IMG/VR virus record: IMGVR_UViG_3300027917_000018
Location: 64,001-128,000 of that record
Strand: one strand, 5' to 3'
Length of the DNA: 64,000 bases
DNA from: a virus
Taxonomy: Duplodnaviria; Caudoviricetes
Of the stretch, positions 45,008 through 59,262 are shown piece after piece (within the stretch, counting starts at the first letter, position 1; each line of letters opens with the position of its first letter). A program made the position numbers and the translations under genes. A model generated the notes under the pieces. The model did not search any database. It was not told the DNA's origin and worked only from the letters and a program-made list of their open reading frames with translations.

Positions 45008-45295
45008 ATGACGAAGGAACAAGCGGAAAGACTGATCGTAGTGCTTGAGACCTTGGTAAACGGAGGATTGTCTGACGCGGCTGCCGCAGCCTGCGCGGGC
45101 GCTGTCAGCGACAATGTTGAGTCAATAGCCACGAGTTTAGCTGACGTGGCCAACTCAATTTCTGACGGCAGGTTGCCCTCTCTTAGGCCAGCTAGTCCAG
45201 AGCCGTCGTTGTCAGAAGCGGTAAAAGGAGCTGGGCAGAATATCCGCAAAGGTCTGGAAACCTTAGCCGACGCCATTCTGGCAGGCAAGTCCTGA
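45008..45295 (+). CDS. Hypothetical helical protein (lower GC)
   Basis: 95 aa; repeated ESIATSLADVA / KGLETLADAI helices. Confidence 0.55.
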   Translation: MTKEQAERLIVVLETLVNGGLSDAAAAACAGAVSDNVESIATSLADVANSISDGRLPSLRPASPEPSLSEAVKGAGQNIRKGLETLADAILAGKS

Positions 45296-45387
45296 TGATT
45301 TGCGCTGGGTGGCCCCAGTGCGGCGGCGGGCGCGCCTCTGTGAGGCTTAAACGGGTTGTAGCCCGCCGCCTTTCCGTTCTATTGGGT

Positions 45388-45711
45388 ATGAGCGCACAAT
45401 CGTTTACATCCAATCATTGGACCACCCCGGACGGCGTGCCAGCTGGTGGCTGCTCCTTCGGCACGGGCTTCTGCATCTCCTGGCAAAACGGGCCGCTCGG
45501 TCGCGGCGAGGATCGCTTGCCGCACAACGGGGCGTTTGTCGAAACTTTGCTGGAGGTCGTGGCCGACCGGCTGGTGTACTACCAGAACAGCCGGTTCGCG
45601 TGCGACGAGAACACCGACGCCCTTGAGCACATCGGCAAGGCGCTGGAAACACTGCGTTCCAGGACGGCCAAGCGGGAGGCCCGCCAGGTGGAGGGTACTG
45701 CGGAGGTTTAA
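45388..45711 (+). CDS. tad1: Tad1-like anti-Thoeris nucleotide-sponge protein
   Basis: ISWQNGP...NG...LLEVVADRL..YQ...F...EN..AL.H...AL..L..R...R..RQVEGT matches the Tad1 pattern recalled from memory; GTTCT 7 nt before ATG. Confidence 0.75.
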   Translation: MSAQSFTSNHWTTPDGVPAGGCSFGTGFCISWQNGPLGRGEDRLPHNGAFVETLLEVVADRLVYYQNSRFACDENTDALEHIGKALETLRSRTAKREARQVEGTAEV

Positions 45712-45713
45712 CA

Positions 45714-46202
45714 ATGCCACGCGATACCAGTGCGGAGGCGTACGCAGCTATCAGGGAGTCCGGCTACTTGGGGCAAACACTGTGGGCTGTTTACGATTGC
45801 CTTTACAGGTTCGGTGGGCGCTACGGTGACGGCCAGGGGCTTTCTCAGACCGAATGCTACCACACCGCAATCGATAAGGGGCTTGTTGAGGCCGACAAAA
45901 AGGACTCATTAGGCCCGCGCTTTGCGCCGCTGGAGCGAATGGGCATCATACAGCGCGTGGCCAAACGTCAGTGCCACTATACCGAACGAACGGTTTGGTG
46001 CTACGATGCGACAAGCTTTGTGCCTACTTCCGAGCAAGTCGCGGAGGCGCTTCGACGCCCGAGGACATTTTGGGCCGTGTTGGGTAAAGGCGAGCGGGCT
46101 GGCGTTCTTTGGCTGGACAAGAAGGAGGCCAAGGAAGACTTGCGACAAACAAGCGCCGAGCTGCCCGGCAGCGAGATGTTTGAGGTTACGGAGAGGGTAT
46201 GA
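45714..46202 (+). CDS. Winged-helix-like hypothetical protein
   Basis: TSAEAYAAI N-terminus; PRFAPLERMGII. Confidence 0.6.
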   Translation: MPRDTSAEAYAAIRESGYLGQTLWAVYDCLYRFGGRYGDGQGLSQTECYHTAIDKGLVEADKKDSLGPRFAPLERMGIIQRVAKRQCHYTERTVWCYDATSFVPTSEQVAEALRRPRTFWAVLGKGERAGVLWLDKKEAKEDLRQTSAELPGSEMFEVTERV

Positions 46203-46736: not shown

Positions 46737-47321
46737 ATGAAGCTTTCTCCAGAACTGGCTGACAGCCTGCCCAAAGCCGAGACCCCGGCCAGGCTGGTGG
46801 GCTCGCCTCGGCAAATCGGATGGGCTGAAACCATCCGGCAGCAGATGCTCGACAAGGTTTCCAGGGCCACCGCCGGGCTTGGCGAGGGATGGGCCGGGCA
46901 GGTCGAGGTCTACAGCGTCTTGCTTGCCGCCGACGACGCCTCTTGGTTCATCGCCAACAAGGACAAGGAATTTTGGGAAATGAACTGGGACTGGCTCGGG
47001 CTGACGCCGGAACAGCGGCAGGAGCGGAAGCAGGCGCACTATCGAGCGAGTGGCAGGCCCAGCGGGCGCACCAAAGGCATTCAGGAAGACACTGAAGATA
47101 CCCCGGCACCCCAGGCCAAAAGGCGCGAGCAGGCACAAGCTTACCTGGTTTCTTTCCGTCAGTCCATTAACGGCAAAGTCAAAATCGCAAATGCGCTGAC
47201 CACACGGAATCCGGTCGACTGGCTGACCGGCGTGCTGGAGCGCGGGGACGATGTGGCGCTTGTAAACGCGTGGGCCATCTCGCCGGAGCAGTACACCGCC
47301 CTTGCCCGGAAGCTTCCGTAA
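46737..47321 (+). CDS. Hypothetical protein
   Basis: LVGSPRQIGWAETIR motif common in phage early proteins. Confidence 0.65.
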   Translation: MKLSPELADSLPKAETPARLVGSPRQIGWAETIRQQMLDKVSRATAGLGEGWAGQVEVYSVLLAADDASWFIANKDKEFWEMNWDWLGLTPEQRQERKQAHYRASGRPSGRTKGIQEDTEDTPAPQAKRREQAQAYLVSFRQSINGKVKIANALTTRNPVDWLTGVLERGDDVALVNAWAISPEQYTALARKLP

Positions 47322-47326
47322 CGCGT

Positions 47327-47893
47327 ATGAGTATTTGGGACCGAGACTTTTCCATCAGGCTGACGAGCAGCCGGGTCATTGGCAAAACCCGCAAGCTCAA
47401 GACCCGCTGGAGGGTTGAGGAGGGGCAAGACCTTCAAGCTTTCCATTCTGCCGACGCCGAGGACGCGTTGGCCGTTGAACTGGGATACGAACCGCCACCC
47501 GGAGTAAGCACCATGAGACAAATCCACATCAACAAGACCGAACTGCTCGCGATCGTGCGGAAGAACCGCGCCGAGCACCGCGACATCTTCCTGAAGTCGC
47601 AGAAGAAGTACCGCCAGGTCGCCATCAAGGCCCTGGACGCCCAGCTCAAGGCGGCCCGTAACGGCAGACCGTTCCAGCTTGCCAGCCTGATCCAGCTCGA
47701 AGCGCCCGAGGACCACACCGAGGAATACGACCGAGCGATCAAGATGCTGGAGATGAGCACCGACGAGACCATCCTGATCACCAACGACGAATTCAAGTGC
47801 TACGTCGAGGACAAGTGGCACTGGAGCCGCGAGTGGGCGGTCAGCAACATGCGCTACACCAAATCCGCCAAGCTGTCCGCCTTGGCAAGATGA
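47327..47893 (+). CDS. Hypothetical protein (alternative start 47513)
   Basis: INKTELLAIVRKNRAEH helical domain. Confidence 0.6.
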   Translation: MSIWDRDFSIRLTSSRVIGKTRKLKTRWRVEEGQDLQAFHSADAEDALAVELGYEPPPGVSTMRQIHINKTELLAIVRKNRAEHRDIFLKSQKKYRQVAIKALDAQLKAARNGRPFQLASLIQLEAPEDHTEEYDRAIKMLEMSTDETILITNDEFKCYVEDKWHWSREWAVSNMRYTKSAKLSALAR

Positions 47894-55934: not shown

Positions 55935-57124
55935 CGCCCAATCAGCAAGATCGCGCTCTGAAGAATGCCAGCCGGTGGCTGCACAAGTACCGGCGGGCCG
56001 CCCGGCAGACCCTTGGCCCGGAGCGCGCCAAGTATCAGCAAGCCGCCCGGAATTATCGTGGATGGATTTCAACGCTGCGCCGGGACATTGCGAACCGGCC
56101 CACAGAAGAAGGAATTGAGATGAGCAAACTGCACGAAGCTTACGGCTGGGTGGTCAGCTATGACGCCCCAGGTGGCACGAAATGGTACTGGGGCCAGAAA
56201 GGCTGGGTTCAGGACCGGCATCAGGCCAAAGCCTCGATGAAGAAGGCCGATATGATCAGCCTGGCGCAAAGCTTGGTGCGCAACGCCCCGGCCTTGCAGG
56301 ACCGCATCGGCGTTCAGGTGAACGCACCGAAGTTGGAGGGCATTCCTGCAAACACGGGCGAAGATGAAGGGTTCCGTCGGATGAAGCGCCTGGCCGCCAG
56401 ACCGGACAGCGAGCTTGGACCAAGCGCACGCCGCGCCAAAGCGCGGTTCCTGGCGAACAACAAGAAGGCCGATGCCATGTTCAAATGGGCTAAGGGCGTC
56501 AAGGAGGACGTGCCTTTTGCCCAGCCTGCCGGTGGGCCGGACGACCCGTGGCGGCAAAGCATAGTGAAGGTGCCTTACGACCAGTTCGATTTCAGCGGCA
56601 AGCGCGGCAAAGAAGACGTGGAGGACGAGGACGACGAGGAAAAAGAGACCGAGAAGCCCAAGGCCAAAAGCCGTTTTGACCTCAAGTTCGATGAGTCCGA
56701 GACGCTCGCCTCCAGGGTCCTGGAGACTGGCGAACGCAGCAAGCGCGACATCTACAATGAGCTGGAGCGCTTGTGGGCGGAGCGCGACGAGATGCAGCGG
56801 CTCCAGCGGTTCATGGCCAAGTGGGCGCTCATCAAGGACGAGCTGGGCATCAGCGACGCGGACATCCAGGCCCTGGACATCGAAACCAAGGGCGACGGCA
56901 GCAAATGGGCGGTGGGCATCTACCTCAAGGAGCCGCGCTATGACCTGAAGATGCAGCGGGCCGACGCCCGCCGTAAACGTTTGGATCGTGAGTGGGCCGA
57001 GAAGAATCCTCATTTGCACCGCAGTCAGAAGCCGTCGTGGTCGCCGGGTCACCGGCATTCCAGCTCCAGCTACATCGCTTTGGAGCAGCCGCTTTATCTG
57101 CCCAAAGCCTACTTCAAGAAATGA
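55931..57124 (+). CDS. Multi-module hypothetical protein
   Basis: ATG 55931; linkers LHE, KLEG, ETLASRVLETG. Confidence 0.7.
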   Translation: MTPNQQDRALKNASRWLHKYRRAARQTLGPERAKYQQAARNYRGWISTLRRDIANRPTEEGIEMSKLHEAYGWVVSYDAPGGTKWYWGQKGWVQDRHQAKASMKKADMISLAQSLVRNAPALQDRIGVQVNAPKLEGIPANTGEDEGFRRMKRLAARPDSELGPSARRAKARFLANNKKADAMFKWAKGVKEDVPFAQPAGGPDDPWRQSIVKVPYDQFDFSGKRGKEDVEDEDDEEKETEKPKAKSRFDLKFDESETLASRVLETGERSKRDIYNELERLWAERDEMQRLQRFMAKWALIKDELGISDADIQALDIETKGDGSKWAVGIYLKEPRYDLKMQRADARRKRLDREWAEKNPHLHRSQKPSWSPGHRHSSSSYIALEQPLYLPKAYFKK

Positions 57125-59262
57125 AGGTTGCCGGGCACGAGGTTGAGACCGTCACCCATCCGCATCACGGCGGCTGGATGGCGATAGCCTACCTCGAAGG
57201 CGGCAAGCAAGTGGCCGGAGCGCCGTGCGACACCAAAGAGCTGGCCGAGAAAGACCTTCACGACAAGCTCTACGACATGCTGCGGCCCAAGTTCGATCCG
57301 AAGAAAACCTACGAGCAATCCGAGGAATACCAGCAGCGCGTGATTGCGAGAGCAGAAACGTTTACGCCTTTCAAGCGAGCGATGTGGGACCTCGATGTGG
57401 CACTGACTGACCGCGCCTTCGAGGCCGCCAGCCAGTACCACCACTACCCGGATACGCCGGATAAGTGGTTTGCCCAGGGCGGCGAATGGTACCTGAGCGA
57501 TGGAGGTTACAGCCGCGTCGTTTACAGCGAGGAGACCGGGAGGCTGTTCCTGACCAGCAACAGCCGCGACCAGGTCAAGGCGCGGTGGGACGAGGCGCTG
57601 CCCCAGCGGGCCAAGGCCGAGGCCATCATTAACGACTACATGCGCCAGGAGCTGGGCGAGGCCAAGACCAAGTTTGCCGCCGTGGTGCTGCTGAAGGACA
57701 AGGACGACCCCAAGGCTCTGATCATCAAGCGGGATGACGAGCCCGAGGCGGGCAAGTGGGCCTGTCCTGGTGGCCACTGCGATCCGGGCGAGGACGACGA
57801 GGCGGCAGCCCACCGGGAGCTGAAGGAGGAGACGCGCTTGTCCGCCGAGAGCCTGGTTCCGCTGGGCAAGACCGCCGATGGCACGGCCATGTTCTGCGGC
57901 TGGGCCAAGACCGAGGACGCCAAAGGCACAGCCACCGACGACGCCGAGGGCCTCAAGTGGGTCTCGGTCGACAACCTGCCGGAGCTGGCATTTGGCAACG
58001 AAAAGCATATCCGCCAGGCCGTTCGCAAGCTCAAGGCCAAGGAGGAGGCACTCCAGCTCGCCCGCGAGGTTCTTAATGAGGTCACGCCTCGGGAGCTTTT
58101 AAGTCGGCACCCCGGAGAGGCAGAGCCGTACGTTTTCTTTCAGCCGTCGGGCATAGAATCGTTCAAGCTACCCCTCCAAAAAGTGGCTTCGACTTACGGT
58201 TGGGATTACACACAGGCTGAGCTTAGCCAGGAACAGCTAAACTGGCTCGACCTCCACGGTGAGTCTGTTTTTATAGCCTTGAACGACTACGGAGCAATCA
58301 ATAGCGACATTCTGGACGCAAACGACGAAACTGCGGGTACTTTCAGCGTCGTTGGTAACCTCGATAGCGCTACAGAAGTCAACAGTCTCGAACGTCTCAC
58401 GCCGCCGTGGCGCACGGAAGGCAAGATCGGCAGTCCGCGCCAGAACCGTTGGAACCCGATGGGGCTTCACCGCAATCACCGGGGCCAGCTCGTGGACAAG
58501 TACGGGCGCGTCATGGACGTGGACTGGGATGAGTTTGAGCGCAAGCGCCTGAAGCCCGGCGAGGAATTGAAGAGCCCGAAGGTGCTCAATCCGCTTCACC
58601 AGGCGGCCAAGGCCACCGGCCAGGTCGAGGCGCGGGAGCCAGAAAAACCGGGAAAGCCGATCAGTCCCCGCGAGCTGCTCAGGAAGTACCCGCGTGAACA
58701 GCCCTATCTGCTCAAGGGCGAGATTGAAGACACCCAGCGCCTGGTCAAGGTCCTGGACCGGTTCGACAACGAGGAGCACATCTACGATGACGGCTACGGG
58801 CCGCTGTGGGTCATGCGGGAAAGCCTGGGCATCACCGGCATTGCCCGAGCCCGTTCGTGGGAGGATGCCTATAGCATCGCCGAGGACGAGTTCTTCCATG
58901 AGGCGGATGAAACGGTCGAAGAGCTTCAGAAGGAGTACGGCTTTCGGCGCGAGCACGTCAAGATCGTGCGCGATCCGAAAACCGGCGAGGAGCGAGATGT
59001 TCAGCAGGGCGACTATCCGTTTGCGGAAACCGGCGTCGAGTTCGTGCGTTGGGAGACTAGGGAAACCCCTGACCCGGACGGCTGGATTGACAACGAGCTG
59101 TTCCAGGAGGCGTACGGCTTCAGGCCAAACGGCCCCAATGCCCGCGACACGCACCAGCACGGTATTTACCAAAAGGACCTCAACGGCGAGGTCTTGGACG
59201 AGCTGACGCCAGCCCTGGCCGAAGAGCTTCAGTTGAGAATCTACGTGGAGGACGAAGAATGA
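57121..59262 (+). CDS. Multi-module protein containing a Nudix hydrolase domain
   Basis: PGGHCDPGEDDEAAAHRELKEETRL Nudix box; linkers LAREVLNEVTPRELL and ISPRELL. Confidence 0.8.
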   Translation: MKVAGHEVETVTHPHHGGWMAIAYLEGGKQVAGAPCDTKELAEKDLHDKLYDMLRPKFDPKKTYEQSEEYQQRVIARAETFTPFKRAMWDLDVALTDRAFEAASQYHHYPDTPDKWFAQGGEWYLSDGGYSRVVYSEETGRLFLTSNSRDQVKARWDEALPQRAKAEAIINDYMRQELGEAKTKFAAVVLLKDKDDPKALIIKRDDEPEAGKWACPGGHCDPGEDDEAAAHRELKEETRLSAESLVPLGKTADGTAMFCGWAKTEDAKGTATDDAEGLKWVSVDNLPELAFGNEKHIRQAVRKLKAKEEALQLAREVLNEVTPRELLSRHPGEAEPYVFFQPSGIESFKLPLQKVASTYGWDYTQAELSQEQLNWLDLHGESVFIALNDYGAINSDILDANDETAGTFSVVGNLDSATEVNSLERLTPPWRTEGKIGSPRQNRWNPMGLHRNHRGQLVDKYGRVMDVDWDEFERKRLKPGEELKSPKVLNPLHQAAKATGQVEAREPEKPGKPISPRELLRKYPREQPYLLKGEIEDTQRLVKVLDRFDNEEHIYDDGYGPLWVMRESLGITGIARARSWEDAYSIAEDEFFHEADETVEELQKEYGFRREHVKIVRDPKTGEERDVQQGDYPFAETGVEFVRWETRETPDPDGWIDNELFQEAYGFRPNGPNARDTHQHGIYQKDLNGEVLDELTPALAEELQLRIYVEDEE

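Follow-up and report, generated by a model that had tools for sequence, protein, structure and literature searches.

The small open reading frame at positions 45388..45711 (+ strand) of an uncultured phage genome raises the question of whether its product captures an immune signaling molecule, and if so, which one. The first-pass annotation had proposed a Tad1-like sponge at this site, and the ORF is indeed present, running from ATG to TAA over 107 codons plus the stop, with a translation that contains the residue strings quoted there. The window, by which is meant the whole stretch of 64,000 bases analyzed, comprises bases 64001-128000 of a 202,975-base IMG/VR virus record that is rated 89% complete and has a G+C content of 59-64%. 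Portal, tail fibre, and helicase genes and a gene for a very large baseplate-type protein lie within the window, and a Gp23-family major capsid gene is located elsewhere in the genome (G000:C1:19314-20438; 6.7e-28). Because this capsid gene is present, the record is read as that of a distant T4-type phage, uncultured, 203 kb in size, and derived from sediment. A megablast search with 12 kb around the gene revealed no near relative among 50,697 phage records. The tad1-like gene, of which the genome carries one copy, resides within a same-strand run of small genes without assigned function. PADLOC returned zero matches for this gene and six of its neighbours, and Tad2 (PF11195) was not found in a profile search of the phage genome.

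One uncertainty concerns where the protein begins. Public gene calls place the start at ATG 45295, which yields a 138-aa product (P0001). The public model probably includes 31 codons too many, and the true start is probably ATG 45388, based on three lines of evidence. First, of the 120 homologs listed, most have lengths of 104-110 aa, and their N termini fall no more than one or two residues from M1 of the shorter form. Second, in the spacer immediately upstream, at 45296..45387 (+), two adjacent G+C-rich stem-loops are predicted, at 45302-45321 and at 45322-45370 (-49.7 kcal/mol, z -2.1); their stems comprise 8 and at least 10 base pairs, and TTTCC follows them. Third, GC content by codon position is flat in these 92 bases (0.68/0.61/0.65) versus 0.62/0.50/0.79 inside the gene, and this latter pattern is also seen in the neighbouring genes.

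The longer product, which would carry an extra basic, Cys-rich N-terminal segment, nevertheless has some points in its favor. No stop codon interrupts the frame between 45295 and 45388, and the ATG at 45295 shares bases with the TGA that ends the upstream gene, an arrangement resembling that of coupled translation. Moreover, this is the start chosen by the public gene calls, and 138 aa is near the length of the solved Tad1 chains (132-138 residues, purification tags included). However, the 31-codon extension is unmatched in any homolog, and the same stretch is occupied by the stem-loops and exhibits the flat codon-position GC, which makes the 138-aa form very improbable. The stem-loops could represent a terminator, or alternatively a regulatory or recombination hairpin. 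Hairpins of this kind have been described between accessory genes of T4-type phages.

The 107-residue protein almost certainly belongs to the Tad1 (Thoeris anti-defence 1) family. A phmmer search against all PDB chains retrieved CmTad1 (8kbb, 9.3e-6), CbTad1 (7uav, 1.3e-5), and PhiKZ gp184 (4.5e-5), with the remaining matches being noise. A profile built from 23 close homologs matched the same three proteins at 5.4e-13, 2.7e-10, and 1.3e-7, respectively, and retrieved no Acb2 chains from the PDB at E values up to 1. Relatives were located by tblastn in 116 phage records, including those of Bacillus, Pseudomonas, Vibrio, Aeromonas, Agrobacterium, and other phages. Among these is the annotated Tad1 of Bacillus phage SBSphiJ7, the founding member of the family, which was matched at 6e-9 with 50% identity over 60 residues of the helical hairpin. 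The best PHROG match is phrog_2428 (4.7e-20). As judged from these sequence comparisons, the similarity to Tad1 greatly exceeds what chance would produce, with the alignment to the solved Tad1 proteins covering the C-terminal two thirds of the query.

The Pfam family in which Acb2 and Tad1 hairpins are placed together (PF24729.2, Acb2_Tad1_hairpin; curated cut-off 27 bits) gave a different result. Neither it nor any other Pfam-A model matched the protein at E values up to 1 or the 23 homologs at E values up to 0.01, and PF24729.2 matched nothing in the phage genome at E values up to 1. This silence appears to reflect the version of the model rather than absent homology, because a precomputed PF24729.3 match is recorded for many homologs that are 55-66% identical to the query. 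Overall, the profile comparison that had been suggested for evaluating the Tad1 identity came out strongly in its favor through the homolog profile, even though PF24729.2 itself was silent.

Structure comparisons lead to the same assignment. An AlphaFold2 model generated from 69 sequences (pLDDT 93.8, pTM 0.81) has strands at residues 6-12, 18-25, and 28-32, a loop at residues 33-50, helices at residues 51-66 and 73-98, and a VEGT tail at the C terminus after the second helix. It therefore combines the N-terminal antiparallel beta-sheet and the two long C-terminal helices by which the Tad1 fold is recognized. Foldseek returned 17 matches in the PDB at E values up to 1e-3, and the matches listed are all CbTad1 or CmTad1 chains (probability 1.00, TM 0.65-0.76 on the query, with TM 0.75 for CbTad1); the next match is unrelated and has an E value of 0.27. 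When VIA-align was used to search 48,161 representative chains, the two Tad1 representatives were the only ones to reach Z >= 8. CbTad1 scored Z 9.5 (2.7 Å over 102/107 residues, spanning residues 1-107) and CmTad1 scored Z 9.0 (spanning residues 1-103). Thus, the predicted model shows a Tad1 fold over the whole length of the query, and both structure searches, which had likewise been proposed as a check, convincingly match Tad1 only. Compared with the solved Tad1 proteins, the query lacks roughly 20-35 residues of the N-terminal sheet.

Acb2 proteins (PaMx33 Acb2 and T4 Vs.4; PDB 8H2J and 7UQ2) also are small phage sponges constructed on a two-helix hairpin. In contrast to the query, classical Acb2 lacks the N-terminal sheet, and T4 Vs.4 (VIA Z 6.1, rmsd 10 Å) falls within the helical-hairpin background.

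The match to PhiKZ gp184 raises the prospect that the protein is a structural component residing inside the virion, which has only the helical hairpin in common with Tad1. PhiKZ gp184 (PDB 8Y6V chain I) is a 230-aa inner minor capsid protein that is located under the capsid vertices and is proteolytically processed by the head protease. Its C-terminal 60 residues are homologous to the query, with the family profile matching residues 168-228 of 8y6v_I, and some phage homologs bear the annotation 'structural protein'. However, the 165-residue N-terminal part of gp184 is missing from the query, and the whole-length match found by Foldseek and VIA-align is to Tad1 rather than to gp184. In addition, a direct reading of the sequence reveals no A-x-x-[VIL]-L-E leader, so that a capsid-targeting leader of the kind used by this phage is rejected for the protein, and the gene is situated among small accessory genes and not among head genes. 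A virion-internal role is therefore extremely unlikely. As a separate matter, the homology between the gp184 C terminus and the Tad1 hairpin poses the question of whether virions might package some Tad1-like domains.

If the gene encodes a stand-alone Tad1 protein, as these findings indicate, the next issue is which ligand sites it retains. In CbTad1, residues F82, N92, R109, and R113 hold both gcADPR and 2',3'-cGAMP, and their mutation abolishes binding, whereas cyclic trinucleotides are held at a three-fold interface by R90 and T97, equivalent to R88 and T95 of CmTad1 (Li et al., bioRxiv 10.1101/2023.11.15.567273). The same study describes how the CbTad1 pocket is closed by the R57 loop and a C-terminal lid (residues 116-122), and how CmTad1 M102, W103, and K106 form a hydrophobic contact between the dimers of the hexamer, a trimer of dimers (Li et al., bioRxiv 10.1101/2023.11.15.567273). 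To map these positions, the numbering of the HMMER chains was offset relative to the paper by 1 for CbTad1 and by 10 for CmTad1, after which all the named residues fit the expected letters.

The HMMER alignment places the four CbTad1 pocket residues at Y65, N75, R92, and R96 of the query, with F82 to Y65 being a conservative change. These residues are encoded within 45580..45675 (+). The loop arginine R57 corresponds to R39, and the lid reads A-R-Q-V-E-G-T. Therefore, CbTad1 (from a Clostridium botulinum prophage; PDB 7UAV, 7UAW, 8SMD, and 8KBE-H) and the query have in common the fold, all four pocket positions, the loop arginine, and the lid. Differences are evident in overall identity (about 24-27%), in the shorter N-terminal sheet of the query, and in the lid, where CbTad1 L119 is replaced by E102. 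The C-terminal helical hairpin is closely similar to that of CmTad1 (Clostridioides mangenotii; PDB 8KBB-D), and both CmTad1 and SBSphiJ7 Tad1 carry the motif C-x-E-N...R-T-x-x-R...V/I-E-G-T that is also found in the query. At 142 aa, the SBSphiJ7 protein is longer, being extended at its N terminus by about 35 residues.

The other two sites have been altered. The cyclic-trinucleotide contacts R90 and T97 of CbTad1 are replaced by D73 and E80, and the hexamer contact residues M102, W103, and K106 of CmTad1 are replaced by E87, T88, and S91, all of which are encoded in the same stretch as the pocket residues (45580..45675). Across this region, CmTad1 R88, T95, K96, Q98, E99, M102, W103, and K106 correspond to D73, E80, H81, G83, K84, E87, T88, and S91. 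Conservation was evaluated with 69 sequences, and also with 284 related domain instances by HMM-guided alignment. In the larger set, the four pocket positions are 93-95% conserved. The arginine plus threonine or serine pair of the trinucleotide site is kept in 14/284 domains, aspartate or glutamate occupies the arginine position in 132/284, and the interface tryptophan is kept in 25/284. Cyclic-trinucleotide binding is a secondary activity of some Tad1 proteins and does not define the family.

This mapping also bears on a detail of the first-pass annotation, which had noted KALETL in place of EALMW and had suggested that the change might alter ligand specificity. The difference is real, but it lies outside the gcADPR pocket and does not bear on gcADPR specificity. 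The altered residues map to the M102/W103 hexamer contact of CmTad1, near the trinucleotide site, and therefore are relevant to assembly and to trinucleotide binding. Furthermore, KALECL is present at the equivalent place in a Tad1 protein that still blocks type I Thoeris (Tad1 no. 49, discussed below).

Taken together, the retained pocket and the predicted fold make it fairly likely that the protein serves as a gcADPR sponge directed against type I Thoeris, perhaps also capturing cyclic dinucleotides but probably no cyclic trinucleotides. In such a mechanism, the protein would form at least a Tad1-type dimer, and pockets at the dimer interface, composed of Y65 and N75 together with R92 and R96 and the closing VEGT tail, would hold 1''-3' or 1''-2' gcADPR. 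Since this signal is made by ThsB of type I Thoeris, the sponge would keep it from the ThsA effector, and with ThsA deprived of gcADPR the infection would proceed. The same pocket may also accept some of the cyclic dinucleotides used by CBASS. Because the arginine and threonine have been exchanged for D73 and E80, and the Met-Trp pair for Glu-Thr, cyclic-trinucleotide binding is not expected, and higher-order assembly might be different or weaker. The position of the gene amid small accessory genes in a Gp23-type phage is consistent with a sponge role.

The ligand might nonetheless differ from that of characterized Tad1 proteins. The N-terminal sheet of CbTad1 supplies part of the pocket (Q8 and L13), and the shortened sheet of the query could, by analogy, shift specificity. 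It is unlikely, although far from negligible, that the protein is a Tad1-fold sponge for a different or new signal, such as an ADPR-derived compound or a cyclic mononucleotide, and does not block type I Thoeris. Specificity is known to shift readily in sponges, with some Acb2 homologs binding 3'cADPR and some Tad2 homologs binding cUMP or N7-cADPR. Moreover, among the query and its close relatives the N-terminal sheet is remodelled and shorter, and the loop preceding helix 1 is variable, with large Cys-rich insertions in some relatives. Also pertinent is that 19/84 of the sponge homologs tested in one screen, about a quarter, inhibited none of the seven systems examined (Hadary et al., bioRxiv 10.1101/2025.08.24.671296). 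Retention of the C-terminal lid motif VEGT argues against a shifted signal.

The gcADPR sponge assignment can be placed in the context of a large clade of ~106-residue proteins with a shortened N-terminal sheet, to which the query belongs. A profile search of a library clustered at 50% identity yielded 4,786 clusters at E values up to 1e-3 and 129 at E values up to 1e-30. The N terminus of close relatives follows the pattern H-W-x-D-x-x-G-x-P-A-G-G...G-F-x-I-S-W-Q-N-G-P-L-G-R-G...P-N-G-A-F-V-E and lacks about 35 residues found in SBSphiJ7 Tad1. Some members (P0197, P0231, and P0259) have this type of N terminus yet carry the canonical C-R-E-N-A-L-A-I-T-K-L-E-E-A-L-H-W, and therefore shortening of the sheet is a trait separate from loss of the trinucleotide site. 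Because the trinucleotide site and the Met-Trp contact have been lost and the N-terminal sheet has been trimmed, the clade might constitute a distinct Tad1 variant that assembles differently (for example, as a dimer) and binds gcADPR only or an as yet unassigned signal, a proposal that should be considered tentative and rather doubtful.

Several relatives (P0121, P0122, P0144, P0162, P0197, and P0231) display other architectures. In some, two Tad1 units are fused in tandem within a single chain, and in some the loop leading into helix 1 carries a Cys-rich insertion of 25-45 residues. One Tad1 fusion is preceded by an N-terminal region that resembles Clp N-domain repeats.

A preprint from 2025, in which 1,587 non-redundant Tad1 homologs were collected from IMG/VR, already lists this protein among the Tad1 homologs (Hadary et al., bioRxiv 10.1101/2025.08.24.671296). 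The sheet 'homologs_Tad1' of Table S1 contains the exact 138-aa gene call twice, as IMGVR_UViG_3300001687_000017|WOR8_10000170 and IMGVR_UViG_3300027917_000018|Ga0209536_100000027. The short-form clade, however, appears to lie outside the functional screen, given that the clade motifs NGAFVE, WQ[NDH]GP, and GPLGR occur in none of the 20 tested Tad1 proteins of Table S2 (Hadary et al.). The best available precedent for the query is Tad1 no. 49 of that table (IMGVR_UViG_3300029622_000038, 124 aa), which inhibits type I Thoeris and is inactive against type II and type IV Thoeris, two CBASS systems, and two Pycsar systems (Hadary et al., bioRxiv 10.1101/2025.08.24.671296). Like the query, it has C-D-E-N at the position of the trinucleotide arginine, and K-A-L-E-x-L replaces E-A-L-M-W-L. 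It differs in its long-form N terminus, in F-Q-K-G versus W-Q-N-G-P-L-G-R-G of the query, and in its V-L-G-K tail.

These results are relevant in several ways. The annotation of this uncultured 203-kb phage from sediment gains one correctly identified counter-defence gene, and the presence of this gene suggests that the host of the phage uses TIR- or cGAS-type signalling immunity. In addition, attention is drawn to a large short-form clade that has been catalogued, though it is seemingly absent from the published functional screen.

The immediate neighbourhood of the gene offers further observations. A gap of 2 bases separates the tad1-like stop codon from the next gene, at 45714..46202 (+), which encodes 162 aa and is preceded by a GGAGG within the 3' end of the tad1-like gene. 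Based on this short gap and the embedded GGAGG, the two genes are probably co-transcribed and their translation is apparently coupled. The downstream product gives a weak match to phrog_1123 (8e-6) and no Pfam or PADLOC match. A conserved operon was not found, because four IMG/VR loci with relatives have only the tad1-like gene in common. Such unshared neighbourhoods are as expected for a mobile accessory gene.

Other features of the window might merit attention. A small accessory ORF (47270..47893), located about 1.6 kb beyond the 3' end of the tad1-like gene, contains a stretch at 47348-47482 whose 45 residues match positions 134-178 of the Gp23 major capsid family at 24.4-25.8 bits, which is at or just above the 24.4-bit cut-off. 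The arrangement GTTCT, 8 bases, and ATG occurs 5 times in the window versus 1.3 expected (10978, 22652, and 50299 on the + strand; 10513 and 54802 on the - strand), and three of these copies read GTTCTTCnAAGnnATG. The tad1-like gene has a GTTCT with a 7-base spacer. This arrangement may, on weak grounds, be a common upstream signal. Finally, a NUDIX hydrolase domain (phrog_1198, 8e-19) is embedded in the product of a 756-aa ORF at 56992-59262, where it occupies residues 225-336.
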